Of a stretch of 64,000 bases of DNA, positions 22,615 through 64,000 are shown piece after piece. A program made the translations under genes and the position numbers. The notes under the pieces are model-generated. The model worked only from the letters and a program-made list of their open reading frames with translations. It had not been told where the DNA came from and ran no database searches. The stretch lies in assembly GCA_913043255.1 (NCBI GenBank), contig CAJWLK010000009.1, positions 27,706 through 91,705 of the forward strand. Reading direction: 5' to 3'. This stretch comes from an uncultured Gemmatimonadota bacterium (lineage in GTDB: Bacteria > Gemmatimonadota > Gemmatimonadetes > Palauibacterales > Palauibacteraceae). Position 1 is the first letter of the stretch; each line of letters opens with the position of its first letter.

Positions 22615-22742
22615 CAGACCCTGGAGATCCGCACAGGATGTCAGATGATCATTCGACCTTCGGGAGAGTATCTCGCCACCCGCTATAAGAGTGTGGTGAA
22701 CAACCAAGAAACTCCCAAAGGGTGTTTCAACTGGGGTATGAC

Positions 22743-40012: not shown

Positions 40013-40039
40013 GATCTCAACGCAGATCCTTGATCAAGG

Positions 40040-44387: not shown

Positions 44388-44389
44388 AC

Positions 44390-45451
44390 TCAGGCCTGTC
44401 GCTCTGGATAATTTTGCAAGGCGAGTTCCAACTTCTCCAGAACATCCTCCGCTTGAATTCGTGCCATGTTTCCCTTTCGCTTCTTCCGCGAAGGATTCGT
44501 CTCCCCTAATCTCGTGTATTGATCAACGGTCAACTCACTAAAGTGACGGTACGGCCCAGACCGTTTAGGGTCGGTATACCCATACAACCCTACCGTCGGC
44601 GTTCCCAACCCCACTGCTATGTGAAGCGGGCCAGTATCAGGGCTGAGAACAAAATCACTCGCATCAAGGAGCCAAGCCATTCTTCTCAGATCAGTCCCCA
44701 ACTCAACACGTGGTGAAGCTTTACTGAGTTTAATCAAACGCGTGGCCCAATCACGTTCTTCGGTTGAGGGGCCACCCACAATAACCGGTTCGAGATTAAG
44801 ATCGTGTGCTGCAATATCCAGTACTCGTGCATATCGTTCCAGAATCCAATTTTTCTGCGAATGCGAGGAGCACAGGACAACTGCCAGTACTCTCCGATCA
44901 ATTTTCTGCCGCCACCTGTGCTGATCATTACGTTCCGTTTCGGTGAAGAAAAAATTCCATTCACGCCGCACTGGCACACCTAATACCTCAATAAACTCTA
45001 GAAGTTCATCCTGCGTATGAGCTGTAGCACAGGCTGGTAGGCGACGATTTGTCGCAAGCCAACTGAAGTCTTGGGACCGACTGCGATCGTAACCAAGCTT
45101 AATAGGTGCGGGAAGAAGTTGGGTAACGACCCCACCTTTGAATACCGGCTGCAAATCAAGCACCAAGTCGAATGTCCTGTCTTGCAGTCGACGCCGAAAA
45201 TCCATATACGCCCGTACCCCTAGCTCACGTCTAAAACACAGGAATTCATCGACGTCGGGTCTGCCACTCATAAGCATGTGGGGCACCTTTTGGATGACCC
45301 ATGAGATATGAGTATCACACCATGCCTTCCGAAGTGATGCTATCACCGGGAGCGCATGCACCGAATCGCCAATGGCACTCATCCGAACGATTGCCACCCT
45401 GCGAGGTGGTTCGGGGAGCACTATCTCCCTCAAGGGGTCAAATTTTAGCAC
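44390..45451 (-). CDS. GT9 LPS heptosyltransferase (WaaC/F-like)
   Basis: RMSAIGDSVH, DLQ, DTGPLHIA, GLYG. Confidence 0.9.
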   Translation of the reverse strand: MLKFDPLREIVLPEPPRRVAIVRMSAIGDSVHALPVIASLRKAWCDTHISWVIQKVPHMLMSGRPDVDEFLCFRRELGVRAYMDFRRRLQDRTFDLVLDLQPVFKGGVVTQLLPAPIKLGYDRSRSQDFSWLATNRRLPACATAHTQDELLEFIEVLGVPVRREWNFFFTETERNDQHRWRQKIDRRVLAVVLCSSHSQKNWILERYARVLDIAAHDLNLEPVIVGGPSTEERDWATRLIKLSKASPRVELGTDLRRMAWLLDASDFVLSPDTGPLHIAVGLGTPTVGLYGYTDPKRSGPYRHFSELTVDQYTRLGETNPSRKKRKGNMARIQAEDVLEKLELALQNYPERQA

Positions 45452-45572
45452 AGGTTCACACTGTATTAACCTTGGCGATCTTGCCAGTGGAGGATCTTGA
45501 ATACCATTGAATGGTACTCATTACTAGAACTGGACGATGACAAAGAACAGCAAGGGCTGTAACCTCGAAGTG

Positions 45573-47000
45573 ATGCGAACTCTAACACGATACCTCCTGC
45601 GCCTTCATCTGGCGCCATTTCTATTCGCCGTAACCGGCCTGACACTTTTGCTGTTGCTTGACCAGGTAAGCAAACGGTTTCAAGACCTCATTGGGAAAGA
45701 CCTTCATTGGTCAGTAATCGCTGAAGTCTTTGTTTACTCCATCCCATTCATCCTTGCTCAAACACTCCCTATGGCTGTCCTGATCACCGTTCTCTACGTG
45801 TATAGTCGTTTGGAGGGTGATTTTGAAATCACCGCTATCAAGGCTAGTGGGGTGCCCCTTCACAGAGTTATGGCTCCCATATTGCTTGCAGCCACAATAT
45901 TAGCGGGCGGGATGACCTGGTTTAATAACGTTGTGCTACCGGAATCCAACCATCACCTCCAAGTGCTGCTCACGGGGGTCGGGCGAAAGAAACCAACCTT
46001 TTACTTACGTGAACGAACTATCAACGAGGTACTTCCCTCGCGCTTATACGTCCAACCTGCCGCGATTGATCGAGAGCGAAGCGAACTCGATGATGCGGTA
46101 ATCTATGACGAAAGAGGCGGCCAACAGAGTCGGACGATATACGCGAGTGGTGGTAAAATGGCGTTCGAAGAGAGCGGTGAAGATCTATACCTAGATTTAA
46201 GCAATGGAGTCCTCCAAGAGCGCCCCAACAGACAGCCAAATGCATTTAGGAGAATTGAGTTTGATCGCCTAGTGATGCGAGTTCCAGCCGTGACCAATTC
46301 CCTTGAGCGCGACACGCTTAGTGGGTATCGAAGTGATCGTGAGATGAACATCGGACAAATGCGCGCCGAGGCTAAAAAAGGAGAGCGCACGGTGGCCACA
46401 TCTCAAGCGGAAAGCCGTGGATACGCGATTGCGATAACTAAAAAACTTGTCAAACCTCAAGCATTAGCGGAACCGACGATTCAAGGGCCTATGACAGCTC
46501 AAGGTAGAGCAAGTGGCTCCCGGTCCAGACTTCGAGCCACGACCTGGCCAGAAGAGGAAGTGTTTGATTCAGAATGGAAACAGGGCCCATTATCAGCAGA
46601 CTCAGCTATTCAGGCAGGGGTACTTGCAGCGGAACGGTTTTATAGCGCCACAGACGCAGCGACACAGTTTCGAGCCTATAGAGAGCGTGAGGAAGCCGGA
46701 CTGCGTCGCATCAACAAATTTTGGGTGGAGATTCACAAAAAGGGCTCGATCCCAGCTGCATGTATCATCTTCGTACTTATTGGCGCACCGATCGCCGTAA
46801 GATACCCACGGGGCGGAGTTGCGCTCGTTGTCGGCGTCAGCCTCGCTTTCTTCGCCGCATACTATGTTTCACTCGTGGGAGGAGAAGATCTGTCGGATCG
46901 CCGGCTAATATCGCCACTGTGGGCCATGTGGGCCCCGAACATCTTGTTTGGCACCTTCGGGTTAGTAGCACTATGGCGAGCCACCCACATACCTCGGTGA
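45573..47000 (+). CDS. lptF: LPS export permease LptF family, with an insertion in the periplasmic region
   Basis: LPMAVL, EITAIKASG, EIHKKGSIP, WAPN. Confidence 0.85.
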   Translation: MRTLTRYLLRLHLAPFLFAVTGLTLLLLLDQVSKRFQDLIGKDLHWSVIAEVFVYSIPFILAQTLPMAVLITVLYVYSRLEGDFEITAIKASGVPLHRVMAPILLAATILAGGMTWFNNVVLPESNHHLQVLLTGVGRKKPTFYLRERTINEVLPSRLYVQPAAIDRERSELDDAVIYDERGGQQSRTIYASGGKMAFEESGEDLYLDLSNGVLQERPNRQPNAFRRIEFDRLVMRVPAVTNSLERDTLSGYRSDREMNIGQMRAEAKKGERTVATSQAESRGYAIAITKKLVKPQALAEPTIQGPMTAQGRASGSRSRLRATTWPEEEVFDSEWKQGPLSADSAIQAGVLAAERFYSATDAATQFRAYREREEAGLRRINKFWVEIHKKGSIPAACIIFVLIGAPIAVRYPRGGVALVVGVSLAFFAAYYVSLVGGEDLSDRRLISPLWAMWAPNILFGTFGLVALWRATHIPR

Positions 47001-47004
47001 TCAA

Positions 47005-48081
47005 GTGAAACTGCTAGATCGATACGTAACAGCGCAGTTCCTCAGGATCTTTGGGGTTTGTGTACTCGGCGTACCGTTCCTCTTCATGGTTATTGATCTC
47101 ACCGACAATATCGACCGTTTTATTGATCAAGGGATGACACGCACACAGGTTACTCTCCACTATATTTACCAGTTCCCTTATCAGTCCCTCCTCGCATTCC
47201 CGATAGCAGCACTCCTCGCTTCGGTATTCACAGTCTCGGGTATGACACGACGATTTGAAATCACCGCCATAAAGGCCGGAGGTTTCTCCTTCTATCGATT
47301 CAGTCTGCCAATCTTGATGATGGCGACAATTCTCAGCTTTGGAGCACTCGCTCTCACTGAGCTTGTCGCTACCACAAACCGAAAGTCTGTGGAAGTGCTC
47401 GAGCGGGATGAATCTCGTAGCCAAACCATCCGCCTGTCCTTCGTTTACCGAGGGGATGAAGGGCTGGTATACAAAGTCCGACGATTGGATTCAAGAGAAG
47501 GGCGTATGGATGACGTGCAAGTTGAACGAGAAGGAATAGGTCCGGAATTTCCGACTATGAATCTCTCTGCGAACACAGCCATGTTCGACACATTATCGGC
47601 GCGATGGGTATTGCAGGACGGGTGGGCAAGACGTTTCCTGGAAGCTGATCGAGAACGGGCATATGAGTTTCTAGAAATGCATGTACGAGAACTTGATGAG
47701 CAACCTGATGATCTCCGGGCACAACCTAAGGATGTTGATGAGATGCGTTTTGCAGAGCTTGGAAAGTTCATAGACGCGATCGAACGCTCCGGAGGAACTG
47801 CGTGGGATCTCCAGACAGCCCAAGCCCAACGAATTGCATTCCCATTTGCATGCCTGGTTATCACACTCTTTGGGATGCCATTGGCACACTCGAATCGCAG
47901 GGGGGGAGCTCCGCTCTCAATTGGAATCGCACTCGCAACAACGATCGTCTTCCTGATCTTCACTCGGATCACGGAAGCTCTTGGAGCGGGAGGTGCACTA
48001 CCTGCAACGGTAGCTGCATGGTTACCAAATTGGGTATTTCTCTTCGCCGGATTCGTGCTCTTTTCACGAGTGCGCACATAA
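47005..48081 (+). CDS. lptG: LPS export permease LptG family
   Basis: LLDRYV, EITAIKAGG, RIAFPF, AAWLPN. Confidence 0.85.
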   Translation: MKLLDRYVTAQFLRIFGVCVLGVPFLFMVIDLTDNIDRFIDQGMTRTQVTLHYIYQFPYQSLLAFPIAALLASVFTVSGMTRRFEITAIKAGGFSFYRFSLPILMMATILSFGALALTELVATTNRKSVEVLERDESRSQTIRLSFVYRGDEGLVYKVRRLDSREGRMDDVQVEREGIGPEFPTMNLSANTAMFDTLSARWVLQDGWARRFLEADRERAYEFLEMHVRELDEQPDDLRAQPKDVDEMRFAELGKFIDAIERSGGTAWDLQTAQAQRIAFPFACLVITLFGMPLAHSNRRGGAPLSIGIALATTIVFLIFTRITEALGAGGALPATVAAWLPNWVFLFAGFVLFSRVRT

Positions 48082-48105
48082 TAGCTCATACCCATGCGCA
48101 AAGTC

Positions 48106-49080
48106 TCAGTACGTGGTGACCTCGCCTGCTTCCAAGCGCTGAATATCCGCACGCACCATCTGCCGTATTAATTCATCAAAAGATACATGCGGTTTCCACC
48201 CGAGCTCGTCTTTTGCCTTTGTTGAATCGGCACATAAATGGTCCACCTCAGCCGGACGTAGCAGCGATGGGTCCTGTATAACAAAATCGTTCCAGTTTCG
48301 GCCAACTTCGTCGAAAGCGATTGTGAGCAAATCTTCTACAGAGTGCGTTTCGCCCGTTCCAATAACGTAGTCTTGGGGAGTGTCTGCTTGGAGCATCATC
48401 CACATCGCTTCGGCATAATCACCTGCAAATCCCCAATCCCGCCGAGCACTAAGGTTACCCATAGGGAGTTGATCCATAAGCCCGAGGTGAATCTGTGCCA
48501 CGTGCCAGCTCACCTTCCGAGACACAAACTCAAGACCTCGTCGCGGACTTTCATGGTTGAATAAGATCCCACTGACTGAGAACAAATCGTAACTTTCACG
48601 GTAATTCACTGTTATAAAATGGCCATATACTTTGGCTACCCCATACGGACTCCTCGGATAAAATGGGGTATTCTCGTTTTGCGGTGTCTGACGAACTTTG
48701 CCAAACATCTCCGACGAAGATGCCTGGTAGAAGCGTATTCCAGTGTTCACTGCGCGGATCGCCTCAAGAACCCGTGTCACTCCAAGTGCTGTAAACTCCG
48801 CCGTCAACAATGGTTGTTCCCACGATGTGGGAACAAATGATTGTGCGGCGAGGTTGTATACTTCAGTCGGTCGGATTTTTTCCAAAACACGGATCAGTGA
48901 TAGCTGGTCAAGCAAGTCGGCCTGGTGCAGTGTAATCCGGTCTCTTAGGTGGACTATACGGTCGTACTTCTCGACCGATGAGCGTCTTACTACACCATGG
49001 ACATCGTAGCCTTTGTTAAGCAAAAGCTCAGCTAGATACGATCCATCCTGACCAGTAATGCCGGTAATGAGCGCAATCAT
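48106..49080 (-). CDS. gmd: GDP-mannose 4,6-dehydratase
   Basis: [50 protein letters not shown]. Confidence 0.96.
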
Positions 49081-52188: not shown

Positions 52189-53550
52189 CTACCGAAAGGC
52201 ACTCTGGAGCGCCAGGGTCCACATCATATCGGGACGCAAACCGACGTTACGAACTGGGACTAGGGCGTTTGTAACGAGTAGCATGTCACTGCCGATTCGG
52301 AACTTGAGACCGACGGCCATATCCAATGCACGGCGGCTCTTGGGGTTGCTCAAGCCAGGAATCGAGCTTGGCTCAATCATAATCTGCGGATCATAGAAAG
52401 TTGCTGCCCGTTCCCGAGGAAGACTGATCTGCCCTGGATGAGCATACTTCGGGACATCGTGCTCCCACTGCGATATAAGATCCAGTGCAAAAGTCATGTG
52501 GTCATTCACATGAGCATCCAAACCTATCGTTCCGAGAAACGCATCGGGCCGGCCATCCCCCTGGCGAAGTAAGTAACCAACGTTGAGGTGGGGAGAGATA
52601 CCCTCCCACCGTCCAGAAACGATTGCAAGCGCCCGGACCATACCTGCCCCTAGGCCCAGAAACTCATCTGCATCTCCTGTGGGGAGTAGCACATCGGCCA
52701 TAAAAGCAGCCCCAACTGTTGATGGAGACTGGTTCCTAGTTGTACCTCCCACAAGATTGATCTTCAGCCTGGCTGAGACGTCTCCAATTCCCGTAGCTGT
52801 ACCATTCACCGAACTCGAGGAATGCATCGCTGGATCGGTGGGCGTGCCTCCAAATCGGTGTTGGTAGGCCGGGTCCAACGCGAGGATCTGCGCGTTGGAC
52901 GTGCCCTTGAGTCTTGTACGAACAACGGGGATTGCCACACCTATATCCATGAAGCTCGTCAGACCAGCGGTGAGCACAGTCGTTGCCATAACCACGTTCA
53001 GATCCAGTGCTGTCCTCACTTGGAAAATATCTCTCTCATCCAAGCGTCTACCAGCCAATGCCGGATCATCGACCGCGGAAAGTGGATGGCTGTTCACGTG
53101 TGCAAAGTTAAAAAGCATCCTGTCGATGGGGGCACCGTTGAAGTTGCTGACGCTGAATGCGCTGGTCTGGAGGCCGACGAAAAACCGTCCTGCACCCAGG
53201 GTCTCAGCGCGTTCTGCAAATATCGGTCCGAACGAAGTAGGGACGAGGTCACCATTTTCATCTTCATACCCGATCAGGTCACCGCCCATGGCCGGCGCCG
53301 GAACAGTACCGAGCATGTTTGAGAATCCGTCTTCGAAGAAAAAGAGCATGGAACCGTTTTGTGCAACGCGATTTGGCGAGTAGTGATCCCCATGCCCGTC
53401 GACAAGATCCAAGCACAGCACTTCACCGCAGGATCCAAAAGTAAACAAATCAGATACGAGTTCACGTAACGATTGGCCGACCACACCTTGCGCTAAAGGC
53501 AGTTGAAAAACAGCCGAAACGTAAAGCATATAAAGAAAACGCTTGATCAT
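52189..53550 (-). CDS. Exported hypothetical protein, probable outer-membrane beta-barrel
   Basis: Signal peptide from ATG 53550, FAERAETLG, GIGDV, amphipathic strands, near-terminal Phe. Confidence 0.6.
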   Translation of the reverse strand: MIKRFLYMLYVSAVFQLPLAQGVVGQSLRELVSDLFTFGSCGEVLCLDLVDGHGDHYSPNRVAQNGSMLFFFEDGFSNMLGTVPAPAMGGDLIGYEDENGDLVPTSFGPIFAERAETLGAGRFFVGLQTSAFSVSNFNGAPIDRMLFNFAHVNSHPLSAVDDPALAGRRLDERDIFQVRTALDLNVVMATTVLTAGLTSFMDIGVAIPVVRTRLKGTSNAQILALDPAYQHRFGGTPTDPAMHSSSSVNGTATGIGDVSARLKINLVGGTTRNQSPSTVGAAFMADVLLPTGDADEFLGLGAGMVRALAIVSGRWEGISPHLNVGYLLRQGDGRPDAFLGTIGLDAHVNDHMTFALDLISQWEHDVPKYAHPGQISLPRERAATFYDPQIMIEPSSIPGLSNPKSRRALDMAVGLKFRIGSDMLLVTNALVPVRNVGLRPDMMWTLALQSAFR

Positions 53551-53736
53551 CCCCACCCCTAACCATGATTGGCGCGGCAAACTACCAGTGTACTGAGAAA
53601 AAGTAGACAAAAGCCTGCACAGCGCAAGAAAGATCCAAGAGCAACAACCTCCCCCTTGACCTCGCGGTCCCTGTAGGAACATTCTCGCCTATGATCTCTC
53701 CAATATCAGCAACTAGTAGCCGCACCTCGCTGCACC

Positions 53737-55509
53737 ATGGGTAGAACGAACCGAGATTCATACGACGTCGTAGTAGTGGGCTCAGGCGCTGGAGGTGGTA
53801 TGGCCGCATACGTGTTGGCTTGCCACGGCGTCCGCGTGCTTATGCTAGAGGCTGGCCGAGACTACGACCCCGTCTCTGAGACTCCGATGTTCCAACTCCC
53901 TAGAGAAGCACCTCTCCGCGGCGCGGCCACGGATGACAAGCCTTTTGGGTTTTATGACGCCACAGTAGATGGCGGTTGGCGTGTACCTGGTGAGCCGTAC
54001 ACAAGCGCGGACGGTGTGAACTTCATGTGGTGGCGCTCACGCATGCTTGGCGGCCGAACAAATCATTGGGGCCGCATATCTCTCCGCATGGGCCCCTATG
54101 ACTTCAAACCTTATAGCCGCGACGGCCATGGGTTTGACTGGCCTATGACATACAAGGATATGGCACCTTGGTACGATAAGACGGAGGCGTTTGTAGGCGT
54201 ATATGGATCTAACGAAGGACTCGAGAACACACCCGATTCTTCGCCAGGCATCCTCCAACCACCACCAGCTCCACGCGCGTATGAATTGCTGACGCAGAAG
54301 GCATGCAAAGGGCTTGATATTCCCACGGTGCCAGCACACCTCGCTATTCTTACCGAGCGGCAGGACGCCGATCGTCTCTCAAAATTCCTCTGGCCCAATA
54401 ACCCGTTAGCACAAAGAGTGACACGTGAATCCATGCAAGACCGTGCAGCATGTTACTGGGCGACACCTTGTGGTCGAGGATGCTCAATAAAGGCAAATTT
54501 TCAGTCACCCACAGTCTGCCTGCCGCCTGCGTTAGCCACAGGAAATCTCACGATTGTTACCAACGCCATGGTGCGTGAGGTGATGATTGATCGAAAGGGA
54601 CGAGCGACCGGCGTTCACTACATTGATAAAGAAACACGGACAGACCAGGAAGCCCGTGCAGATGTTGTGATACTCGCTGCCAGTGCGTGCGAATCCGCAC
54701 GGATCCTGCTGAACTCGAAGTCCTCTCTTTTCATGGATGGGCTCGCAAATAACAGTGGCCTCGTAGGCAAATACCTCATGGACACGGTGGGAGCAGGCGT
54801 CTCCGGACAGATTCCGGCACTAGAGAATCTTCCCCGCCACCCGGAGGAAGGGGCTTCAGCCCTGCACATGTACATGCCATGGTGGCTATACGATCAGGAA
54901 CTCGACTTTGCACGGGGGTACCATATCGAATTTGGTGGAGGGCAGCGCATGCCAGGCTTTGGAGCGTTCAGCGGTATCGAACCTCTTACTGAGGGCGCAT
55001 ATGGCCAGAAGTTCAAGGAGGAGTGCCGTCGATACTACGGCTCTTTCATGTACTTCGACGGTCGCGGCGAAATGATCCCAAATGAAGATTGTTACTGCGA
55101 GATCGACCCGGACGTTGTGGATGAGTGGGGCATCCCTGTACTCAAGTTCCATTGGAAGTGGTCAGATCATGAGATCCATCAAGCGCGCCACATGCACCAG
55201 ACCTTCGCTGAAATTTTTGAGGCTATGGGTGGACGCGTTCTATCAAACGTCGAAACGGATGGGGCACGTGCAATCCTCGCCCCTGGCCAAATCATCCACG
55301 AGGTTGGGTGCACACGTATGGGTGATGATCCTTCACATTCAGTGGTCAATCAGTACTGTCAGTCGTGGGATGTGCCTAACCTATTTGTGATGGACGGTGG
55401 TCCATTTGTATCAAACGCGGACAAGAACCCCACACTTTCCATTATGGCAATTGCCTGGCGCTCATCAGAGTATCTTGTCGAACAACTCCGACATAGGAGT
55501 TTTCGATGA
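53737..55509 (+). CDS. GMC oxidoreductase large subunit (glycoside 3-dehydrogenase-like)
   Basis: VVGSGAGG, MLGGRTNHWGR, Cx5Cx3C (CYWATPCGRGC), IHEVG, KNPTL. Confidence 0.9.
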   Translation: MGRTNRDSYDVVVVGSGAGGGMAAYVLACHGVRVLMLEAGRDYDPVSETPMFQLPREAPLRGAATDDKPFGFYDATVDGGWRVPGEPYTSADGVNFMWWRSRMLGGRTNHWGRISLRMGPYDFKPYSRDGHGFDWPMTYKDMAPWYDKTEAFVGVYGSNEGLENTPDSSPGILQPPPAPRAYELLTQKACKGLDIPTVPAHLAILTERQDADRLSKFLWPNNPLAQRVTRESMQDRAACYWATPCGRGCSIKANFQSPTVCLPPALATGNLTIVTNAMVREVMIDRKGRATGVHYIDKETRTDQEARADVVILAASACESARILLNSKSSLFMDGLANNSGLVGKYLMDTVGAGVSGQIPALENLPRHPEEGASALHMYMPWWLYDQELDFARGYHIEFGGGQRMPGFGAFSGIEPLTEGAYGQKFKEECRRYYGSFMYFDGRGEMIPNEDCYCEIDPDVVDEWGIPVLKFHWKWSDHEIHQARHMHQTFAEIFEAMGGRVLSNVETDGARAILAPGQIIHEVGCTRMGDDPSHSVVNQYCQSWDVPNLFVMDGGPFVSNADKNPTLSIMAIAWRSSEYLVEQLRHRSFR

Positions 55510-56261
55510 ACCGCGACGAAATGAGGCTGCCCCACCCTGCTGAAAAAGCGGAGCATTTCTCAGAGAAAAGCGGGGTTGAGATCAACACATCAAAATTGAA
55601 ACGAGGAGTCACGCGTCGCCGTGCACTAAAGGTATTGGCTGCTGGGGCTGCCGGGGCCGCAGCCCTTCAATCCACTGGTTGCATAGACGAATCAGAGACT
55701 GCGCCCAACACCGGAGCTTTCGGAGAAACCACGGGCAGAAAACCACGCGCTGCCGGCACCTCGACGGACCCGAACCTCATCACTCCAGTTGTTCCCTGGG
55801 ACCTCGTATTAACAAAAGAAGAGCTAGAAACACTCGCTGCATTGTGCGATGTCATCATCCCTGGCGACGCACGATCTCCCAGTGCTTCGACGGTCGATGC
55901 ACACGGCTTTATCGACGAATGGGTGAGTGCACCGTACGAAGGGAACCAGAATGACTTAGTGATAGTACGTGGAGGGTTAGTATGGCTCGGTGTTGAGTCG
56001 ACGAACCGATTTGGACGCCGGTTCGTCGAGATCGGACCAAATGAAAAAGCGGAAATTTGCGATGATATTTGTTACGAACCAAATGCTGCTCCTGAGTTCA
56101 AGGTGGCCGCACGCTTCTTCGATAAGGTTCGAGATCTCACATCGACAGCGTTTTGGACAACGGATGAGGGAATGGCTGATCTCGGATTTGTTGGTAACCG
56201 CCCAATGCCTAGCTTCGAGGGTCCGCCTCCGGAAGTCCTGCGTCTTTTGAGACTCATATAA
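55506..56261 (+). CDS. Gluconate 2-dehydrogenase subunit 3 family (Tat hitch-hiker small subunit)
   Basis: TRRRALK Tat motif, LCDVIIP, FIDEWV, FWT...DLGFVGN. Confidence 0.88.
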   Translation: MNRDEMRLPHPAEKAEHFSEKSGVEINTSKLKRGVTRRRALKVLAAGAAGAAALQSTGCIDESETAPNTGAFGETTGRKPRAAGTSTDPNLITPVVPWDLVLTKEELETLAALCDVIIPGDARSPSASTVDAHGFIDEWVSAPYEGNQNDLVIVRGGLVWLGVESTNRFGRRFVEIGPNEKAEICDDICYEPNAAPEFKVAARFFDKVRDLTSTAFWTTDEGMADLGFVGNRPMPSFEGPPPEVLRLLRLI

Positions 56262-56287
56262 GAGTCGTATTCCAGGAGATCCTCACC

Positions 56288-57634
56288 ATGCCAGAGCATA
56301 TTTTTTCACGAAGGCAGTTTGTCCGAACATCGTCTGTCGCGGGCGCGGGCTTCACGATTATGCCGAGACGCGTATTCGGTGGCCCAAAGTACCGGGCGCC
56401 TAGCGACACACTCAACGTGGCACACATCGGCGTGGGAGGGATGGGTCGCGGTGATGTCCAGGGAATGGCTAATGCCGGCGAAAACATCTACGCACTATGT
56501 GATGTTGACGATAATCAAGCCTCTTCTGCATGGAGCGCGTTTCCGCAAGCGAAGCGATACCGTGACTTCCGTGTCATGCTGGAACATGAAGCCGAGAATA
56601 TCGACGCAGTCGTGATCTCTACGCCGGATCACACACATGCGGTCGCTGGGATGATGGCCCTGTCGTTGGGTAAGCCAACCCGAATTCAAAAACCTCTGGC
56701 CAGAACAATGTGGGAAGTACAACAATTGATGTCCGCTGCGGAAGTTGCCGGTGTCGCCACGCAAATGGGGAACCAAGGCCACGCACAAGAAGGTACACGT
56801 CAGATGCGTGAATGGTACGAGGCCGGGGCAATTGGGGAGATTCTCCGTGTTGAGTATTGGACGAACAGACCGATTTGGCCCCAGGCTATCCATCGTCCTA
56901 CTGATGTACACCATGTACCTCCCGGATTGGACTGGGACCTTTGGTTGGGCCCAGCACCGGAACGCCCTTATCATCCAGCCTACGCTCCGTTCAACTGGCG
57001 TGGGTGGTGGGACTTTGGGACCGGCGCCCTCGGTGACATCGCTTGTCACGCAATGGATGCTGCATTCTGGACCTTCGACCTACGAATGCCCGAACGAATA
57101 TCTGCCGAATCAACAACATTGTTCTCAGAGACGGCACCGGCATCATCACGAATTGAATACAGCTTCCCAATCCGCGGTTCTCGGCCAGCTGTAGAGGTGG
57201 TATGGCGCGACGGAAACTTGTCACCACCTAGGCCTGAGGAGATCTCTAACGAGGCCACCTGGCCACTAGAACCAAGCGGCCAATTATGGATCGGGACCGA
57301 CGGAAAGATGTTTGCGGGCATTTATGGGGAAAACCCACGACTGCTTGATGATGAACGAGACCGAGAGATCAGAAACAATCCGCCCCCACAGAAGTATCCG
57401 CGCACTGGTGGCGTCTATGCCGAATTTGCCAATGCTTGTAAGGAAGGCCCGGATGCAGGATCCAACTTTGTCGAACATGCAGGACCACTCACTGAAATGG
57501 TGTTACTCGGGAACCTGGCCGTGCGAACATCGGGAGAGATCAGGCTCAATCCCTCGACCGGTGAAATTCTAAACGGCGAATCGGTTCCAGGTGCCTACAT
57601 CCGGTCGCCGTATCGACGAGAGTGGGTCTTTTAG
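56288..57634 (+). CDS. Tat-exported Gfo/Idh/MocA oxidoreductase
   Basis: SRRQFV, IGVGGMG, STPDHTH, QKPL, WDLWLGPAP, GALGDIACH. Confidence 0.92.
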   Translation: MPEHIFSRRQFVRTSSVAGAGFTIMPRRVFGGPKYRAPSDTLNVAHIGVGGMGRGDVQGMANAGENIYALCDVDDNQASSAWSAFPQAKRYRDFRVMLEHEAENIDAVVISTPDHTHAVAGMMALSLGKPTRIQKPLARTMWEVQQLMSAAEVAGVATQMGNQGHAQEGTRQMREWYEAGAIGEILRVEYWTNRPIWPQAIHRPTDVHHVPPGLDWDLWLGPAPERPYHPAYAPFNWRGWWDFGTGALGDIACHAMDAAFWTFDLRMPERISAESTTLFSETAPASSRIEYSFPIRGSRPAVEVVWRDGNLSPPRPEEISNEATWPLEPSGQLWIGTDGKMFAGIYGENPRLLDDERDREIRNNPPPQKYPRTGGVYAEFANACKEGPDAGSNFVEHAGPLTEMVLLGNLAVRTSGEIRLNPSTGEILNGESVPGAYIRSPYRREWVF

Positions 57635-57688
57635 GGTTTACGCGAAGAGTCTTCACGGTTAGAACCATATACTCCAAGGTACAATTGA

Positions 57689-58633
57689 TTGATGCGTCTC
57701 ACGCTTGCCATTCTCGCAGCCGGTCGCTCACAGCGGTTCGGGCGACCCAAGCAACTAGAGCCGGTGGGGCCCAATAGCGAATCTCTCTTTGAGTACACGG
57801 TATACGACGCAATCCGTCTTGGCTGCGACCGTGTTGTATTTGTCCTTCCACCTCACGGCAAAGATTTTATTCAGGCTGCTATCACGAACCGCCTAGCCCG
57901 CTCCATTCCTATCGAATTCATCTCACAGGATCTAAAGGACGTTCCATGCGGGTTTCAGCTTCCGCCGGAAAGGTGTAAACCGTGGGGAACCGCCCACGCG
58001 GTACTCGCACTGCGTAATGTGGTGCAAGAACCCTTTCTGTTAGCCAACGCAGATGATTTCTATGGACCCCAAGGTATACGGAGTTTAGCCTATCGAATTC
58101 GCACTGCCGCCTCGGCTGACGACCCATCCCATTTTTTAGTTGGTTATGAGGTCCAAAGCACAAGCATTTCCAGCAAACGTGGAGTTAATCGGGGACTCTG
58201 TAAAATCGATGAAGCTCTTACACTAGAGCAACTCGAGGAAATCTTCGACGTACGAGAAATCGATGGAGTGTTCTTGGGTTATAAAAGAAACGGCGAAGAA
58301 ATAATGATCCCCTCCAACGGCCTGTGTTCAATGAATTTATGGGCATTCCAATCGTCCATCTTTGAGTGCTTAGCTGAAGAGTTTGTGCGGTTTCAGGAAT
58401 ACTCAGACAATCTAGTTAAAAGCGAATTCCTGCTCAGCCAGACTGTGAGCCAACTGATTTCAACGGCACGCGCTAACGTGCAGATCGTTCCCACCTCCGA
58501 CCGTGCTATTGGACTTACACACCCCGCAGACTTAGCGAGTGTAAAATCGGCGCTACGCCTGGCGGTGGCCAATGGAGACTACCCAGACGACCTGGGGACA
58601 TGGTTCAGTGAACGGAGCGAGCGGTGCAGCTAA
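57689..58633 (+). CDS. Sugar-1-phosphate nucleotidyltransferase (single domain)
   Basis: ILAAGRSQRFGRPKQ, KPWGTAHA, NADDFYG, SMNLWAF. Confidence 0.85.
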   Translation: MMRLTLAILAAGRSQRFGRPKQLEPVGPNSESLFEYTVYDAIRLGCDRVVFVLPPHGKDFIQAAITNRLARSIPIEFISQDLKDVPCGFQLPPERCKPWGTAHAVLALRNVVQEPFLLANADDFYGPQGIRSLAYRIRTAASADDPSHFLVGYEVQSTSISSKRGVNRGLCKIDEALTLEQLEEIFDVREIDGVFLGYKRNGEEIMIPSNGLCSMNLWAFQSSIFECLAEEFVRFQEYSDNLVKSEFLLSQTVSQLISTARANVQIVPTSDRAIGLTHPADLASVKSALRLAVANGDYPDDLGTWFSERSERCS

Positions 58634-60387
58634 ACGGACTCGACTGGCTGGTCCTCGCAGGCTACGGGGTCGTCGCGCTCGGCGTCGGTCTTTATTTCGC
58701 GAAACGTGCAGGGTCGGGCACCGATGAGTTCTTTCTTGCTGGCCGAAATCTTCCATGGTGGCTGTTAGGCACCTCACTGGTTGCCACAACATTCTCAACT
58801 GATACGCCTAACCTTGTCACGGATTTTGTGCGAAATGGGGGCGTAAGCGGAAACTGGACCTGGTGGACATTCTTGATCACCGGAATGTGTACGACCTTCT
58901 TCTACGCCAAGTTGTGGCGTAGGTCGGGCGTGTTTACCGACATCGGGTTCTACGAGCTACGCTATTCAGGCCGACCCGCCGCGTTCCTTCGCGGATTCCG
59001 TGCGTTGTACCTCGGCGTGTTCTTCAACGTAATAATCATGGCTACCGTCATGTTAGCCGCAATCAAGATTGCCGGCGTAGTGTTAGGTGCAGAGAAGTAC
59101 ACGACCGTATTTGTGGCGGGAACCGTAACGGCTCTCTACTCTGCCACATCGGGCCTGTGGGGTGTGGTTGTAACCGACCTGCTGCTGTTTGCGATTGCCA
59201 TGATCGGATCCATTGCAGCCGCCTATTATGCGCTCTCACATCCAGAGGTGGGCGGGTTATCTGGTCTTATGTCTAACCCGGATATCACCAACAGCCTGGC
59301 GCTTCTTCCCGACTTCCATGACTGGAAAACCGCAACCACGATCTTAATCATTCCGATCGCCGTACAATGGTGGGCCACATGGTACCCCGGTGCAGAGCCA
59401 GGAGGAGGGGGATATGCAGCCCAGCGAATGCTTGCAGCGCGCAACGAACGGGATTCAATGCGTGCTGTCTTGTGGTTCAACGTCGCACACTACGCACTGC
59501 GCCCTTGGCCATGGATTCTCGTAGCCCTCGCGTCCCTGGTGGTCTATCCCACCCTCGACTCGATTGCAGCCGCTTTCCCCAACCTCGACCCCTCGATCAT
59601 TCGGCATGACTTAGCCTATCCAGCCATGCTGGTGTTTCTGCCGCACGGGTTACTAGGCCTTGTTATTGCTTCGCTCGCCGCCGCTTTCATGTCGACAATC
59701 TCCACCCACCTCAACTGGGGGTCATCGTATATCGTCAACGACTACTACCGTCGCTTCATAGCGCCTACGCGGAGCGAGAGACATTACGTCCGCATAGGGC
59801 GGCTCTCCACAGTGGGGTTGGTCCTGCTGGCTTCTATAGTTGCGCTGTGGTTGGAAAATGCGATGCAGGCATTCCAGATCCTACTTCAGATTGGTGCTGG
59901 CACCGGGCTGATCTTTCTACTGCGCTGGTTCTGGTGGCGAATTAACGCCTGGTCGGAGATATCCGCGATGGCAACCTCTTTTTTGGTAGCGTTATGGTTC
60001 CAGTTTGGACATGAACGATTTGGCTTCGCGTCTTTTGACCCGGCCATCCAGCTAGTAGTGGGTGTTGTTGTAACAACAACTGTCTGGGTCACGGTCACCT
60101 ATCGTACACAACCAACGGAGAGCGCTACGCTCCAGTCATTCTACGATCGCATTCGACCTTCTCCAGGTGGGTGGAGGACGGCAGTAAATACTGACATCAC
60201 ATCTTCTGACAACATATCCGCTAGCCTCATGGCTTGGGGACTTGGCTGTCTCTCCGTGTACTCCGCGTTGTTTGGGACCGGGATGTTTCTTTATGGACGA
60301 ACGACTGAGGCGATTGTGTTTATGATCATTTCCATTGCGGCAGGTGCCAACCTGTTCCGGACGCTTTCAAAAATTGGGTTTGAGTAG
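58624..60387 (+). CDS. Sodium:solute symporter (SSS family)
   Basis: FFLAGRNLPWW, ATTFSTDTP, AQRMLAA, AAFMST. Confidence 0.92.
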   Translation: MQLNGLDWLVLAGYGVVALGVGLYFAKRAGSGTDEFFLAGRNLPWWLLGTSLVATTFSTDTPNLVTDFVRNGGVSGNWTWWTFLITGMCTTFFYAKLWRRSGVFTDIGFYELRYSGRPAAFLRGFRALYLGVFFNVIIMATVMLAAIKIAGVVLGAEKYTTVFVAGTVTALYSATSGLWGVVVTDLLLFAIAMIGSIAAAYYALSHPEVGGLSGLMSNPDITNSLALLPDFHDWKTATTILIIPIAVQWWATWYPGAEPGGGGYAAQRMLAARNERDSMRAVLWFNVAHYALRPWPWILVALASLVVYPTLDSIAAAFPNLDPSIIRHDLAYPAMLVFLPHGLLGLVIASLAAAFMSTISTHLNWGSSYIVNDYYRRFIAPTRSERHYVRIGRLSTVGLVLLASIVALWLENAMQAFQILLQIGAGTGLIFLLRWFWWRINAWSEISAMATSFLVALWFQFGHERFGFASFDPAIQLVVGVVVTTTVWVTVTYRTQPTESATLQSFYDRIRPSPGGWRTAVNTDITSSDNISASLMAWGLGCLSVYSALFGTGMFLYGRTTEAIVFMIISIAAGANLFRTLSKIGFE

Positions 60388-60457
60388 AAAGTGAAGAAGG
60401 ACGAAAAATCGCAAGTGGCAGGAGAGCAAAGCATGAGTGTTTTGAAGGCGAAACCTC

Positions 60458-61687
60458 TCAAAGCAAACTAACGGTAGCACCCTCTGAAGGTCGTACTATG
60501 AAAGGGGTTTCATCAGAAAGACCCGCCAAAACATTCTCAATGTTATTCGCCGGGCAGATCGCCACGATGGAACCGCCTAAACCAGCTCCCGTGAGACGGG
60601 CGCCTGAAGCACCTGAATCAAGGGCTGTCTCGACCATGGTATCCAATTGATGAGTACTCACTTCGTAATCGTCCCGCAGACTTCGGTGGGACGCCGTCAA
60701 AAGTTTTCCGAATTGTGCAAGTTTTCCGGCTCGCATTGCCTCTTCGGCACGGGAAACCCGATGGGCTTCGGTCAAGATGTGTCGAAAGCGGCGATAGCTG
60801 GTCGAGTCTAAAAATTTTTTTGATTTTTCGAGGATGTCGTTGTATCCAAGCAGCCCCTTATAAGACCTTAGGCCTTGATCACCGGCCGTTTGGAAGCGAT
60901 TAGGCTCACCGAAGATGCTCCAAGCTTTTTGCGCTGCTCGCCTAGCTTCTTCCGTCCTTTGGTTGTAGACCTGCTGTGCCGCACCCGATTTCTCTGCTTT
61001 GTCTCCACTATGCGCGACGATAAAGCTCCAGTCTGGCGGCACCGGGATAGGAGTTACCGCCAACGGATCGAAATCCACGCGAATGGCACACTCCGAACAA
61101 CCCATAAGACAAGCTGCTTGATCCATGCCTCCACCTGCAGTTCCCACATAACGCTCCCCACGGGCTAGTTTGTCAGCCAACTCTAGGCGGAAACTGGGGT
61201 TGTTCTCGCAAATACGCTCAAGATCATCCCTGCCTGCTGTCACGACCAAGGCCAAAGCTGTCGCAACAACGAGGGCCGATGATGAGCTAAGCCCCATAGC
61301 AAGCGGCAGGTCCGCGTCGACAATAGCATCAAATCCGGGAGGACTTGTTCGGCGAACCGAAAAGTTGCCTGTCAATAACGTCTCTGCTGCCGCACGCACA
61401 TAATTGACCCAGTCTCCAGGTTGACCAGTGACGATAGGGGTTAGTGTGGAGAACTCTGCAGAGGTGAAGCCAGCAACAGTTGTAGCAATCCGGATTTTTT
61501 CTAGATGATTTGGACGTAACGCAAGCCAGACGGCCCGATCAATGGCCATGGGGAGCACTGACAACCCACAATAGTCGATATGTTCACCAATCAGGTTAAC
61601 ACGGCCAGGCACTCGAATGACGTGAGTGGGTGGAGCAGCGTACATATCTTCAAACCGCTCAATAAGCATAGTCCGGTCAAACATCAT
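60458..61687 (-). CDS. galK: GHMP kinase, galactokinase family (GALK2/GalNAc kinase-like)
   Basis: PGRVNLIGEHIDYCG, GLSSSSAL, ERYVGTAGGGMDQ, GARLTGAG. Confidence 0.88.
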   Translation of the reverse strand: MMFDRTMLIERFEDMYAAPPTHVIRVPGRVNLIGEHIDYCGLSVLPMAIDRAVWLALRPNHLEKIRIATTVAGFTSAEFSTLTPIVTGQPGDWVNYVRAAAETLLTGNFSVRRTSPPGFDAIVDADLPLAMGLSSSSALVVATALALVVTAGRDDLERICENNPSFRLELADKLARGERYVGTAGGGMDQAACLMGCSECAIRVDFDPLAVTPIPVPPDWSFIVAHSGDKAEKSGAAQQVYNQRTEEARRAAQKAWSIFGEPNRFQTAGDQGLRSYKGLLGYNDILEKSKKFLDSTSYRRFRHILTEAHRVSRAEEAMRAGKLAQFGKLLTASHRSLRDDYEVSTHQLDTMVETALDSGASGARLTGAGLGGSIVAICPANNIENVLAGLSDETPFIVRPSEGATVSLL

Positions 61688-61703
61688 TCAGACCAGCTAC
61701 CAA

Positions 61704-62498
61704 TCACGGGTCAATCACCAAGTTGTCGATAATAAGCACGTGCCCAGGCGGCCCCCACCCATCTAGGGAGATACGGTCGAGGCCGGTCGCTGCTTCGGCC
61801 AGAACCCGTTCGGAACGAAATTGGCTTCGCCCTGCCGGACGATAACGTGTCGCCACAGTTCGGATAACTGCCGTGTCTTCGATACGGTTACCACGGCTCC
61901 AGACGATGATTTCAAATGGGTCAATCATATCCGGACCGTAGATGGTGAACTCAACCTTCCGAGGACGACCCGGAAAGTCGAGTTGAATCACCCCGACTTC
62001 TAATCCATGCTCCTGAGACAAGGCACCGCCCAGGGCATGTCGCGGCGAGTTAGAGGGTAAAAAATTGCTTGCATCGATTATGTACGGCCGAGTTGAATTT
62101 GCGGTCCAAGAATGGAAAGACAATAACAATCCGCTCACCTCCCACTCATCGGAGACGGGGCAATTAGCGCAGAATGATTTTCCGGGAGGAGGGCTCTCGA
62201 AGTCGATCGTCACGAGTTCACCTATGCCAACTGACGCGTTCTCGGCTACAAGGGCTAGTTCGCCTTCTTGGGAAAGTTCCCCTGCAGGAACTGGTTGCGA
62301 GGTCCGAAACCCATCCGGGAACGTAGCCCTAGCCACCTCGACTAGGCTTTGGCGATCTTCCAAATCGTGCTCTAGGCCTTGATCTGGATTCTCCCATCTA
62401 AGCTGAAATCCTGCAAAACGCAGACTCTTGTAGCTGACAAATACGACAAGAGCAACCACTAAAAACCCAGCGATCCTGCGCAGAACCCTTGGTAACAA
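61704..62498 (-). CDS. Membrane-anchored hypothetical protein with beta-rich domain and CxxC
   Basis: N-terminal TM, TIDFE, FCANCP, ends IIDNLVI; lies between GH109 and the kinase. Confidence 0.7.
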   Translation of the reverse strand: MLPRVLRRIAGFLVVALVVFVSYKSLRFAGFQLRWENPDQGLEHDLEDRQSLVEVARATFPDGFRTSQPVPAGELSQEGELALVAENASVGIGELVTIDFESPPPGKSFCANCPVSDEWEVSGLLLSFHSWTANSTRPYIIDASNFLPSNSPRHALGGALSQEHGLEVGVIQLDFPGRPRKVEFTIYGPDMIDPFEIIVWSRGNRIEDTAVIRTVATRYRPAGRSQFRSERVLAEAATGLDRISLDGWGPPGHVLIIDNLVIDP

Positions 62499-62521
62499 GC
62501 GAGGGCGCCTGTTCCGAATAT

Positions 62522-63904
62522 TCAGGCGGTCACCACATCAAGTTGAGGCCAATTTTTCCAATGGCCTCTCGTAAAGTCGGGGAAATCTATGGGACGACTC
62601 CGATTTGCTACCGACTCTTCAGACAAAGCACATACGGCCGAGAGTGCTGCCGCATCATAGACGTTCATATCAGTCGGAAGCCCCTCGCGAAGGCACTTGA
62701 TGAGGCGATAATCCTCTAGATAGTCCATGCTACCATGTCCGCGTCCTTCGCCTACACCTGCCATCTGAGCCCAAAGTGGATGCTCGAAATCCTGGATATA
62801 GGTCTCAGCATCATCCCATCGGTGCCCCTCGCTATGGCCTTCGACATATATCCGGTTAGGATAGCCCTGAAATAGACCTCGCGTCCCCTGGACCATGTGG
62901 ATTCGTGAATAGGGGCGAGGAAGATTTGTATCGTGCGAGACATAGATTGTGCGCCCTTGAGCCGTCATGATCAGCGACACATTAACGTCACCTAATTCGT
63001 ACGTCTCGCTTCCCTTGGGAGTCTCAGGAAGAAAGTTGTCTCGAGCGTAGTTTTGAAGACCTCGAGACGGACCACTCATTGAGACGATGTAGTCGAATTG
63101 ATCTCCGCGATTTATGTCCATACAGTTTGCAATGGGGCCAAGACCGTGGGTCGGATAGAGATTCCCGTTGCGTGTCTTTGAATGCTCTCGCCGCCATAAC
63201 CCCTCACCACTTCCCGCAAACTTGATTTCTCGGAGATCGTGAAGATAGCCGCCTTCGCCGTGTAAGATTTCGCCAAATATCCCCTGACGGACCATGTGGA
63301 ACACCATCATCTCCCACCGTCCGTAGTTCACGTTCTCCATCATGACGCAGTGTTTACTCTTGGCTTCGGCTGTTTCGACAAGCCTCCAACAATCTTCAAG
63401 TGTATACGCCGCGGGCACCTCTGTCGCAGCATGGGCCCCATTTTCCATGGCAGCGACACAAACGGGGACGTGCCAGCGCCACGGTGTCGCCGTGTATACG
63501 AGGTCGAGGTCTTCCTCTTCACACATACGTATAAAATCTGTATCGCCGCGGGTGTAGAGTGTGGGCTCGGGCTGACCAGCCTCCACAACCCAATTGCGTG
63601 CGCGTTCGGCATGCTCTGGAACGATGTCACATAAAGCGGTCAGTTCGACACCATCTATGTCAAGCAGGTTTTGGACATGGACAGACCCCATCCCTCCAAT
63701 TCCAACGAAGCCAACTCGAACCGTATCAATCGGGGCAAAAGATACTGGTTTATCAGGGACACTTCCGTGATCGACAGTGCGATCACCGTCTACGTCTCCG
63801 GGAGAGCATCCAGGAAGAAGTGCGGCCCCAGCACCAAGGGCACCTAGCTTGAATAGAGTGCGCCGATCGAAGCTCTCATCGTGCAGTCCAGGTGTTCCTT
63901 CCAT
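62522..63904 (-). CDS. GH109 NAD+-dependent alpha-N-acetylgalactosaminidase-like (Tat, probable lipoprotein)
   Basis: DRRTLFK + LLPGC, TPWRWH, EVPAA, MMENVNY, YLHDLR, GNLYPTHGLGP, PRPYSR, GHGSMD. Confidence 0.9.
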   Translation of the reverse strand: MEGTPGLHDESFDRRTLFKLGALGAGAALLPGCSPGDVDGDRTVDHGSVPDKPVSFAPIDTVRVGFVGIGGMGSVHVQNLLDIDGVELTALCDIVPEHAERARNWVVEAGQPEPTLYTRGDTDFIRMCEEEDLDLVYTATPWRWHVPVCVAAMENGAHAATEVPAAYTLEDCWRLVETAEAKSKHCVMMENVNYGRWEMMVFHMVRQGIFGEILHGEGGYLHDLREIKFAGSGEGLWRREHSKTRNGNLYPTHGLGPIANCMDINRGDQFDYIVSMSGPSRGLQNYARDNFLPETPKGSETYELGDVNVSLIMTAQGRTIYVSHDTNLPRPYSRIHMVQGTRGLFQGYPNRIYVEGHSEGHRWDDAETYIQDFEHPLWAQMAGVGEGRGHGSMDYLEDYRLIKCLREGLPTDMNVYDAAALSAVCALSEESVANRSRPIDFPDFTRGHWKNWPQLDVVTA

Positions 63905-64000
63905 CTGGCAGTCCTTGCTTAAAAGAGTGTTTCGTTACGCTTGGCCCTTATTTGTCGATGGACAGGCCACTAGGTACAGAAACCGGGGCCAGACTGTTGA

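Follow-up and report, generated by a model that had tools for sequence, protein, structure and literature searches.

Animals salvage N-acetylgalactosamine (GalNAc) with the GalNAc 1-kinase GALK2 and the uridine diphosphate (UDP)-N-acetylhexosamine (HexNAc) pyrophosphorylase AGX1/UAP1. In bifidobacteria, the galacto-N-biose/lacto-N-biose (GNB/LNB) pathway uses NahK, LnpC and GalE, the AmgK/MurU system of Pseudomonas salvages peptidoglycan sugars, and Bacteroides has Fkp, a bifunctional L-fucokinase/GDP-fucose pyrophosphorylase. Here we describe a five-gene module from an uncultured bacterium of the phylum Gemmatimonadota (order Palauibacterales), located at positions 57,689 to 63,904 of a 64,000-nucleotide stretch of contig CAJWLK010000009.1 (assembly GCA_913043255.1), hereafter the window. 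The module is set apart from GALK2/UAP1, NahK/LnpC/GalE, AmgK/MurU and Fkp by its combination of a GHMP kinase of the GalNAc type, a nucleotidyltransferase of the PDB 3pnn family, a sodium:solute symporter (SSS) and a glycosidase of family GH109. With moderate confidence, we suggest that it harvests an N-acetylhexosamine, most likely GalNAc, into the nucleotide-sugar pool, and that it probably represents a form of sugar salvage by kinase and pyrophosphorylase that is new in bacteria.

The genes, placed by a listing of open reading frames (ORFs) and by Pfam and NCBIfam scans, form two convergent sets, NT-SSS on the plus strand and KIN, U264 and GH109 on the minus strand:

57689-58633, plus strand: NT, nucleotidyltransferase, 314 amino acids (aa), PF12804 and PF00483
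58624-60387, plus strand: SSS, symporter of the sodium:solute symporter family, 587 aa, PF00474
60458-61687, minus strand: KIN, GALK2-like GHMP kinase of the galactokinase family, 409 aa, PF10509, PF00288 and PF08544
61704-62498, minus strand: U264, member of a family without a name, 264 aa, between KIN and GH109
62522-63904, minus strand: GH109, exported NAD-dependent glycosidase, 460 aa, PF21252 and PF01408

The first-pass annotation of this DNA had described four genes in two convergent sets. Their positions and families are confirmed, but the genes are five, U264 having been overlooked. The stop of NT and the start of SSS overlap by 10 bases.

Gene linkage, gene fusions and a likely kinase displacement

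Each protein was used to scan 251 genomes of the phylum Gemmatimonadota. Kinase orthologues were taken as matches of at least 250 bits, a tier chosen after seeing a gap in the bimodal scores (250.5 versus 195.8 bits), and are found in 52 of the 251 genomes besides the window's own. Within 10 kb of the kinase lie NT in 37 of these 52 genomes, a top-tier SSS in 30, both NT and SSS in 24, GH109 in 11 and all three in 7. Otherwise, NT is on another contig (six genomes), 28 kb away (one) or unreported at E<=1e-30 (eight). In two of these eight (G205 and G130), NT does stand beside an SSS-KIN pair when the fetched loci are searched by tblastn, so the linkage counts are lower bounds. More distant tiers of paralogues likewise show GH109 and SSS side by side in many additional genomes (e.g., at loci L105 and L114). 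In relatives, the module repeatedly has further neighbours (L112:6130-7056, L112:8476-9510, L103:355-2415 and L104:7918-9765), namely a type I phosphodiesterase/nucleotide pyrophosphatase placed between the kinase and GH109, a phosphofructokinase, and DUF885 proteins that flank GH109.

Two kinds of gene fusion join the activities of the module. First, in the window's genus, g1, NT and kinase share one open frame in 11 of the 12 other sampled genomes. A single NT~KIN ORF carrying both sets of Pfam domains was confirmed at L100 (727 aa, NT at 12-326 and KIN at 347-696) and at L117 (794 aa). The fusion is rare, as a search of 1.84 billion representative proteins returned two full-length fusions (739 and 798 aa) among the best 150 of 21349 matches. 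Second, a variant of the module combines an ordinary PF00483-type nucleotidyltransferase (NTase) with a very divergent kinase of the galactokinase family; in the PDB, these two enzymes score at best 49 and 63 bits. This variant forms a co-directional block GH109-SSS-NTase-kinase at L105, while at L106:2105-4720 (871 aa) and L118:1679-4315 (878 aa) a complete SSS transporter with a C-terminal NTP_transferase domain is encoded in a single ORF, followed by a kinase of the galactokinase family. Open frames of 873-973 aa with the same SSS tier are present in G072, G074, G131, G214, G219 and G244, which suggests that the SSS~NTase fusion recurs there. Transporters are not usually joined to a nucleotide-sugar-forming enzyme, and the fusion may be a sign of channelling at the membrane.

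The module of the window differs from that of its congeners. At the g1 loci L101 and L102, a gene of the Gfo/Idh/MocA dehydrogenase family, SSS, U264 and GH109 form a cluster that is separate from the NT~KIN fusion. The identity to congeners is 38-43% for NT and 46-50% for the kinase, far below the 73-75% of SSS and the 78-84% of GH109. Judged from these identities, separate NT and kinase genes from another lineage appear to have replaced the fusion in the window, inserted into an older cluster of the Gfo/Idh/MocA gene with SSS and of U264 with GH109.

The NT family extends far beyond the phylum. A scan with the NT alignment, using one genome per species, gave 80 loci, many of them clipped by contig ends, in Acidobacteriota, Bacteroidota, Clostridia, Chloroflexota, Verrucomicrobiota (including Akkermansia), Spirochaetota, Planctomycetota and others. 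In 24 of the 80 loci, an APH-family (NahK-type) kinase stands within 5 kb of NT, mostly directly downstream on the same strand. In the same range, 14 loci have SSS, five have both, nine have GalE and five have a GH20 hexosaminidase, a family that recurs beside the NT module. One of the APH kinases beside NT matches the Bifidobacterium N-acetylhexosamine 1-kinase NahK (PDB 4ocu) at E 5.4e-66, and at L053 the order is ROK-SSS-NT-NahK-GH20.

The same partnership exists within Gemmatimonadota. A NahK-type kinase is present in 23 of the 251 genomes, all 23 of which have NT, within 2 kb in 22 of them, and none of the 23 belongs to the 52 genomes with the GHMP kinase. Among the 78 genomes with NT, besides the window's, 44 have the GHMP kinase, 23 have NahK, five have a kinase matched in two pieces and in six neither was detected. 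GH109-NT-NahK blocks are found in G021 and G220. As NahK and the GHMP kinase exclude each other beside NT, this suggests a non-orthologous displacement in which the GHMP kinase fills the role of NahK.

Synteny, the two kinds of fusion and the displacement of the kinase thus couple NT, kinase, SSS and GH109, and it is highly probable that transport, kinase and NT are functionally coupled. That the genes co-occur across genomes and act as a unit, as first proposed, is therefore borne out. The proposal of an animal-like route holds in part. The kinase is GALK2-like, but the module as a whole is a kinase-swapped variant of a broader and apparently undescribed bacterial NT-NahK module for HexNAc.

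The proteins of the module

NT is, judged from its alignments, a sugar-1-phosphate nucleotidyltransferase of the uncharacterised PDB 3pnn family. It matches 3pnn, a "conserved domain protein" of Porphyromonas gingivalis, over its full length (E 6e-58, residues 2-301), while no other PDB match is better than E 0.019. In Pfam, it scores 34.7 bits against PF12804 (MobA-like NTP_transf_3, cut-off 27) and 21.4 bits against PF00483 (NTP_transferase, cut-off 21.2). It has no match to the MurU structure 4y7t in the PDB at E<=1, nor to the MurU model NF045761 in NCBIfam. The glycine-rich motif LAAGRSQRFGRPKQ at the N-terminus is invariant in alignment A1. The 1360 homologues are mostly nameless or called "NTP transferase domain-containing protein". 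They begin at the ATG at 57692, which is likely to be the true start and would give a protein of 313 aa.

KIN matches PF10509 (the galactose-binding signature, 70.8 bits), PF00288 (48.4 bits) and PF08544 (51.4 bits). In a PDB search, its closest solved relative is the human N-acetylgalactosamine kinase 2a2c with 173.4 bits, against 142.3 bits for the best galactokinase, 6tep. By sequence, KIN is thus closer to GALK2 than to the galactokinases, as the first-pass annotation had it. Its motifs EHIDYCGLSVLP and GGGMDQ also resemble GALK2, with which it has EHIDYCG.SVLP in common, while E. coli GalK has EHTDYNDGFVLP and CGIMDQ. Homologues of KIN are labelled "galactokinase" by NCBI and JGI. Among bacterial relatives of about 480-500 aa, the automatic names given by JGI to ten clusters, which are annotation only, are "N-acetylgalactosamine kinase" for four and "galactokinase" for two, and four are nameless. 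The GALK2 resemblance of bacterial kinases is therefore already visible in databases through this automatic naming.

GH109 is probably an exported alpha-N-acetylgalactosaminidase, judged from its family and signal sequence. It scores 207.9 bits against PF21252 (cut-off 27) and 56.7 bits against the Rossmann domain PF01408, and in the PDB it matches 6t2b, a GH109 of Akkermansia, at E 1.7e-103 and 2ixa, the alpha-N-acetylgalactosaminidase of Elizabethkingia, at E 7.9e-87. The loop GRGHGSMD aligns with GGHGGMD of the solved relatives, and we take it to be the conserved histidine loop of GH109. At the N-terminus, the translation contains the twin-arginine motif RRTLFK, followed by LLPGC, a possible lipobox.

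SSS scores 93.5 bits against PF00474 (cut-off 22.8). It reaches no NCBIfam model, the best being TIGR00813 with 121 bits against a cut-off of 184, and its substrate can therefore not be assigned by family. Orthologues with 62-78% identity adjoin NT, the kinase and/or GH109 across the phylum, and homologues with 650-1003 bits adjoin NT in Acidobacteriota, Bacteroidota and other loci. A 43-base patch of the gene, at 58778-58820, is also found on separate, unrelated-looking contigs of three runs, in one at a higher depth (32.4). It is probably a conserved stretch common to the SSS genes of other organisms.

U264 has no matches in Pfam or NCBIfam. Its family has 83 members, all nameless or "hypothetical", and every named taxon is in Gemmatimonadota; in the protein atlas it falls into nameless clusters only. 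Some database records use an alternative start 13 codons downstream. The AlphaFold2 model (mean predicted local distance difference test score, pLDDT, 82.2) has a helix at residues 2-28, a region of low confidence at 49-80 and strands at 96-263, i.e., the protein is modelled as membrane-anchored through a transmembrane helix at its N-terminus, with a disordered linker leading to a C-terminal beta-sandwich. The best Foldseek matches are carbohydrate-binding modules of families CBM4, CBM27 and CBM29, and they are weak (E about 2e-3, TM-score about 0.4). A homologue of 187-192 bits adjoins GH109 at L101 and L102. As a lead rather than a finding, U264 is possibly a glycan-binding partner of GH109.

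Upstream of NT, three further genes lie on the same strand with short spacing:

53737-55509, plus strand: GMC oxidoreductase
55506-56261, plus strand: Gluconate_2-dh3 protein, a Tat subunit
56288-57634, plus strand: Tat-signal oxidoreductase of the Gfo/Idh/MocA family, PF01408 and PF19051, NF058561 below cut-off

The last of these scores 455.5 bits against NF058561, the BT_2158-like glycoside 3-dehydrogenase family, below the cut-off of 750, and its translation contains the motif SRRQFVR. It ends 54 bases before NT, and the plus-strand operon may start with it. An orthologue (831-837 bits) stands directly 5' of the SSS orthologue at the congeneric loci L101 and L102, and the earlier description had missed this gene and its conserved place beside the symporter. 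The three genes at 53737-57634 may encode a periplasmic glycoside-oxidising step tied to SSS. On the other side, beyond GH109, a cytochrome c peroxidase gene is followed by unrelated genes.

The gene order is not an assembly artefact, because contigs from other public runs bridge the region without any joints: they span 57912-64000 (run X1, a contig of 9763 bases), 55081-60715 (X3) and 58975-60850 (X2), and the window itself may stem from the sample of one of these runs. A near-identical stretch is found in seawater and marine plankton metagenomes from seven studies, and no RNA data are listed among the data sets that hold it. A consensus scan found 3 promoter-like and 9 terminator-like sites, which does not exceed the shuffled expectation, and none of either kind in the 70-base gap between the convergent sets.

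Elsewhere in the window, two long ORFs of 497 aa (52189-53682, minus strand) and 583 aa (22722-24473, plus strand) lack a Pfam family. An envelope-biogenesis block at 39257-49080, 9-18 kb upstream of the cluster, contains GT2, a lipid A acyltransferase, an MsbA-like ABC exporter, a PglZ response regulator, a GT9 heptosyltransferase, LptF/LptG and a GDP-mannose 4,6-dehydratase.

The proposed route and its alternatives

The window's genome (2.45 Mb, 93.9% complete) was searched for the enzymes of other routes. GalT of class I or II (PF01087, TIGR01239) gave 0 matches in this genome, with positive controls. A deacetylase of the NagA/AgaA type has no match in it either, as the best match to TIGR00221 covers 56 positions and scores 31.6 bits (cut-off 225.65). 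The absence of both that had been noted in the window thus extends to the genome, which means that the module represents neither the Leloir pathway nor a route of amino-sugar catabolism. What fits is salvage into a nucleotide sugar. NahK, sought by tblastn and in the phylum scan (G000, 0 matches), and GH20 are also absent from the genome. On contig C4, GlmS (785 bits) has a GlmM-like gene as its neighbour (C4:180972-184211). The genome scan gave no canonical bifunctional GlmU; the best candidate is C17:13881-14846, a 337-aa NTase resembling archaeal GlmU and RmlA-long (108 bits as ORF, 104.5 in the genome scan, cut-off 367). Amino-sugar auxotrophy was considered as a rationale for the module and is ruled out by GlmS and the GlmM-like gene. 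As GlmS is present, the route would be one of salvage and not the sole source of amino sugars.

We propose the following route. GH109, exported by the Tat system, would free GalNAc from glycans in the periplasm, possibly assisted by U264 and perhaps also by the neighbouring Tat-exported Gfo/Idh/MocA dehydrogenase. The symporter would take up the free sugar, and the GALK2-like GHMP kinase would phosphorylate it at C1, giving GalNAc-1-phosphate. From this sugar-1-phosphate and a nucleoside triphosphate, probably UTP, NT would then form a nucleotide sugar, probably UDP-GalNAc, destined for envelope or exopolysaccharide synthesis or for epimerisation. Three independent and indirect lines point to GalNAc or another HexNAc as the sugar: the GH109 family, the likeness of the kinase to GALK2 and the partnership of NT with NahK. 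UTP is proposed from the GalE neighbours of NT and by analogy. We infer not only the identity of the sugar and the nucleotide but also the direction of transport and its ion coupling, what U264 does and where the product goes.

Several observations weigh against this route. The kinase passes the NCBIfam galactokinase equivalog TIGR00131 just above the cut-off (243.3 versus 226.65 bits), and galactose is therefore a possible substrate too. The motifs EHIDYC and GGGMDQ are also those of yeast Gal1p, a true galactokinase, and so are no proof of GalNAc specificity. The glycine-rich motif of NT and its best Pfam model, the MobA-like NTP_transf_3, are not diagnostic of the nucleotide. In the genome, no GalE is above the cut-off (best 174-179 versus 262 bits; one GalE-like match adjoins an exopolysaccharide tyrosine kinase), and no epimerase or glycosyltransferase that would consume the product was identified there. 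The word "complete" in the first-pass annotation is not borne out. The kinase has GH109 within 10 kb in just 11 of the 52 genomes. In the window's genus, about 150-220 kb of one contig separate the NT~KIN fusion from SSS-GH109 in six genomes, and in five the two are on different contigs. Five loci of the Acidobacteriota type (L003-L006 and L020) have NT-SSS, with SSS scores of 989-1003 bits, without a kinase within 10 kb, and some of them have a gene of the mandelate racemase/enolase family directly upstream and a CHAD-domain gene downstream. Finally, genomes of one phylum are related, so the linkage counts are not independent events, and the 250-bit threshold for the kinase was set post hoc.

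The strongest alternative is a galactose route without GalT, of the Isselbacher type. Here KIN would be a galactokinase, NT would form UDP-galactose from galactose-1-phosphate and UTP, galactose would enter the cell through SSS, and the GH109-like enzyme would free this sugar or be loosely associated. The TIGR00131 score, the galactose-binding signature PF10509 and the "galactokinase" labels of the homologues all agree with it, and without GalT a pyrophosphorylase would be needed; Akkermansia, too, has GalK without GalT according to PMC13313206. We nevertheless consider this route unlikely. The best solved relative of KIN is a GalNAc kinase, and the nearest solved relatives of GH109 are GalNAc-ases. 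NT partners the HexNAc 1-kinase NahK, both in 24 of the 80 loci and in 23 genomes of the phylum that lack the GHMP kinase, and GH20 hexosaminidases recur beside it. Moreover, no GalE above the cut-off would bring UDP-galactose into central metabolism.

Less likely still is cell-wall recycling, in which N-acetylmuramic acid (MurNAc) or N-acetylglucosamine (GlcNAc) from peptidoglycan would be imported and converted through the 1-phosphate into UDP-MurNAc or UDP-GlcNAc. Its logic of anomeric kinase and NTase equals that of AmgK/MurU, and the Tannerella transporter for MurNAc, MurT, is a member of the sodium-symporter superfamily according to PMC5790795. NahK-type partners accept GlcNAc as well as GalNAc according to PMC6264712. 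However, NT matches neither the MurU model nor, at E<=1, 4y7t, and KIN falls in the galacto-specific branch of the GHMP kinases and is not of the APH type. The linkage to GH109 indicates GalNAc derived from glycans, and GalE beside NT in 9 of the 80 loci suggests a galacto/gluco pair rather than MurNAc. No link to MurT could be made either: MurQ is absent from five Bacteroidales genomes with NT loci, and no SSS homologue lies within about 6 kb of ten MurQ loci taken from 121 Bacteroidales genomes.

That the genes are chance neighbours or belong to separate pathways with no common substrate is very improbable, since the convergent arrangement (two gene sets, not one operon), the few genomes with GH109 near the kinase and the promoter and terminator scan that stays within the shuffled expectation are set against the NT~kinase and SSS~NTase fusions, the 37 of 52 genomes that have NT no further than 10 kb from the kinase, co-directional GH109-SSS-NTase-kinase blocks, and the mutual exclusion of NahK and the GHMP kinase beside NT.

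Salvage of GalNAc into a nucleotide sugar is thus the reading that we carry forward, and a wider proposal can be built on it, which we rate somewhat below an even chance. In it, the 3pnn family would consist of hitherto unrecognised UDP-N-acetylhexosamine pyrophosphorylases that form the core of a pathway of import and direct activation, widespread in bacteria. Its kinase would be of the NahK type or, in Gemmatimonadota, of the GALK2 type, the first bacterial GHMP GalNAc kinase, and GalNAc released by GH109 would be channelled to UDP-GalNAc at the membrane. Channelling is proposed because of the translational overlap of NT and SSS and because of the SSS~NTase and NT~kinase fusions.

Significance and comparison with known systems

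If this proposal is correct, it would give a function to a structural-genomics orphan family, 3pnn, that is present in at least ten phylum-level groups. Bacterial GalNAc would have a third fate, direct activation, beside catabolism through the phosphotransferase system (PTS) or a 6-kinase and the bifidobacterial phosphorylase route. A streamlined planktonic marine member of the Gemmatimonadota would spare de novo amino-sugar synthesis by scavenging glycan-bound GalNAc. The pathway would also be a candidate for the incorporation of exogenous GalNAc analogues by bacteria, and the compact kinase-pyrophosphorylase pairs and their natural fusions could serve the enzymatic synthesis of UDP-HexNAc.

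That such a route had not been described in bacteria was suggested from the start. It agrees with the literature searched, the coverage of which left outside subscription journals and supplements, and in which we found no account of a bacterial GHMP GalNAc kinase with NTase, SSS and GH109, nor any paper citing 3PNN as a protein structure. The available text of a paper on Palauibacterales (PMC10469786) mentions neither GH109 nor galactokinase, and its supplements on carbohydrate-active enzymes may list GH109.

The catabolism of GalNAc in bacteria, for which PMC12118421 is a partial source, passes through the Aga PTS or AgaP/AgaK to GalNAc-6-phosphate and then through AgaA and AgaS. Like the module, it starts with GalNAc that GH109 and other GalNAc-ases have freed. 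However, the window's genome lacks NagA/AgaA, and the predicted phosphorylation is at C1, not at C6, leading to activation and not to breakdown.

Fusions comparable to NT~KIN of genus g1, with an NTase domain joined to a GHMP sugar-1-kinase, are Fkp and Amuc_1591 of Akkermansia, which PMC13313206 proposes to act on fucose. Both differ from the g1 fusion in their domains and in the probable sugar, and in the window NT and kinase are separate genes. Amuc_1591 was considered as a close relative and rejected, as the NT~KIN query finds no homologous fusion in one Akkermansia genome, where it matches only NT, paired with NahK, and a galactokinase encoded apart from them.

AmgK/MurU resembles the module in that an anomeric kinase and a sugar-1-phosphate uridylyltransferase together bypass de novo synthesis. 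It differs in the kinase, which is of the APH type where the module has a GHMP kinase, in the NT family and in the sugar, MurNAc or GlcNAc versus probably GalNAc.

The bifidobacterial pathway also phosphorylates GalNAc or GlcNAc at the anomeric position before forming a UDP-sugar, and homologues of its NahK and GalE are the neighbours of the NT family at 24 and 9 of the 80 loci. In the module, however, a GHMP kinase replaces NahK, the UDP-sugar would be formed by a pyrophosphorylase-type NT rather than by a GalT-type transferase, and SSS would carry a free monosaccharide, where bifidobacteria use an ABC system for disaccharides.

Animal GalNAc salvage shares with the module a GHMP kinase of the galactokinase family, with GALK2 as the best solved relative of KIN, and the order from sugar through sugar-1-phosphate to nucleotide sugar. 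KIN is shorter than GALK2 by about 50 residues, with 409 aa versus the 478 residues of the PDB chain. The module's putative pyrophosphorylase is 3pnn-like and, at about 310 aa, much smaller than the animal enzyme, with no UAP1-type protein among its PDB matches. A further difference from the animal system is that the module comes with an SSS importer of its own and with a periplasmic GH109.

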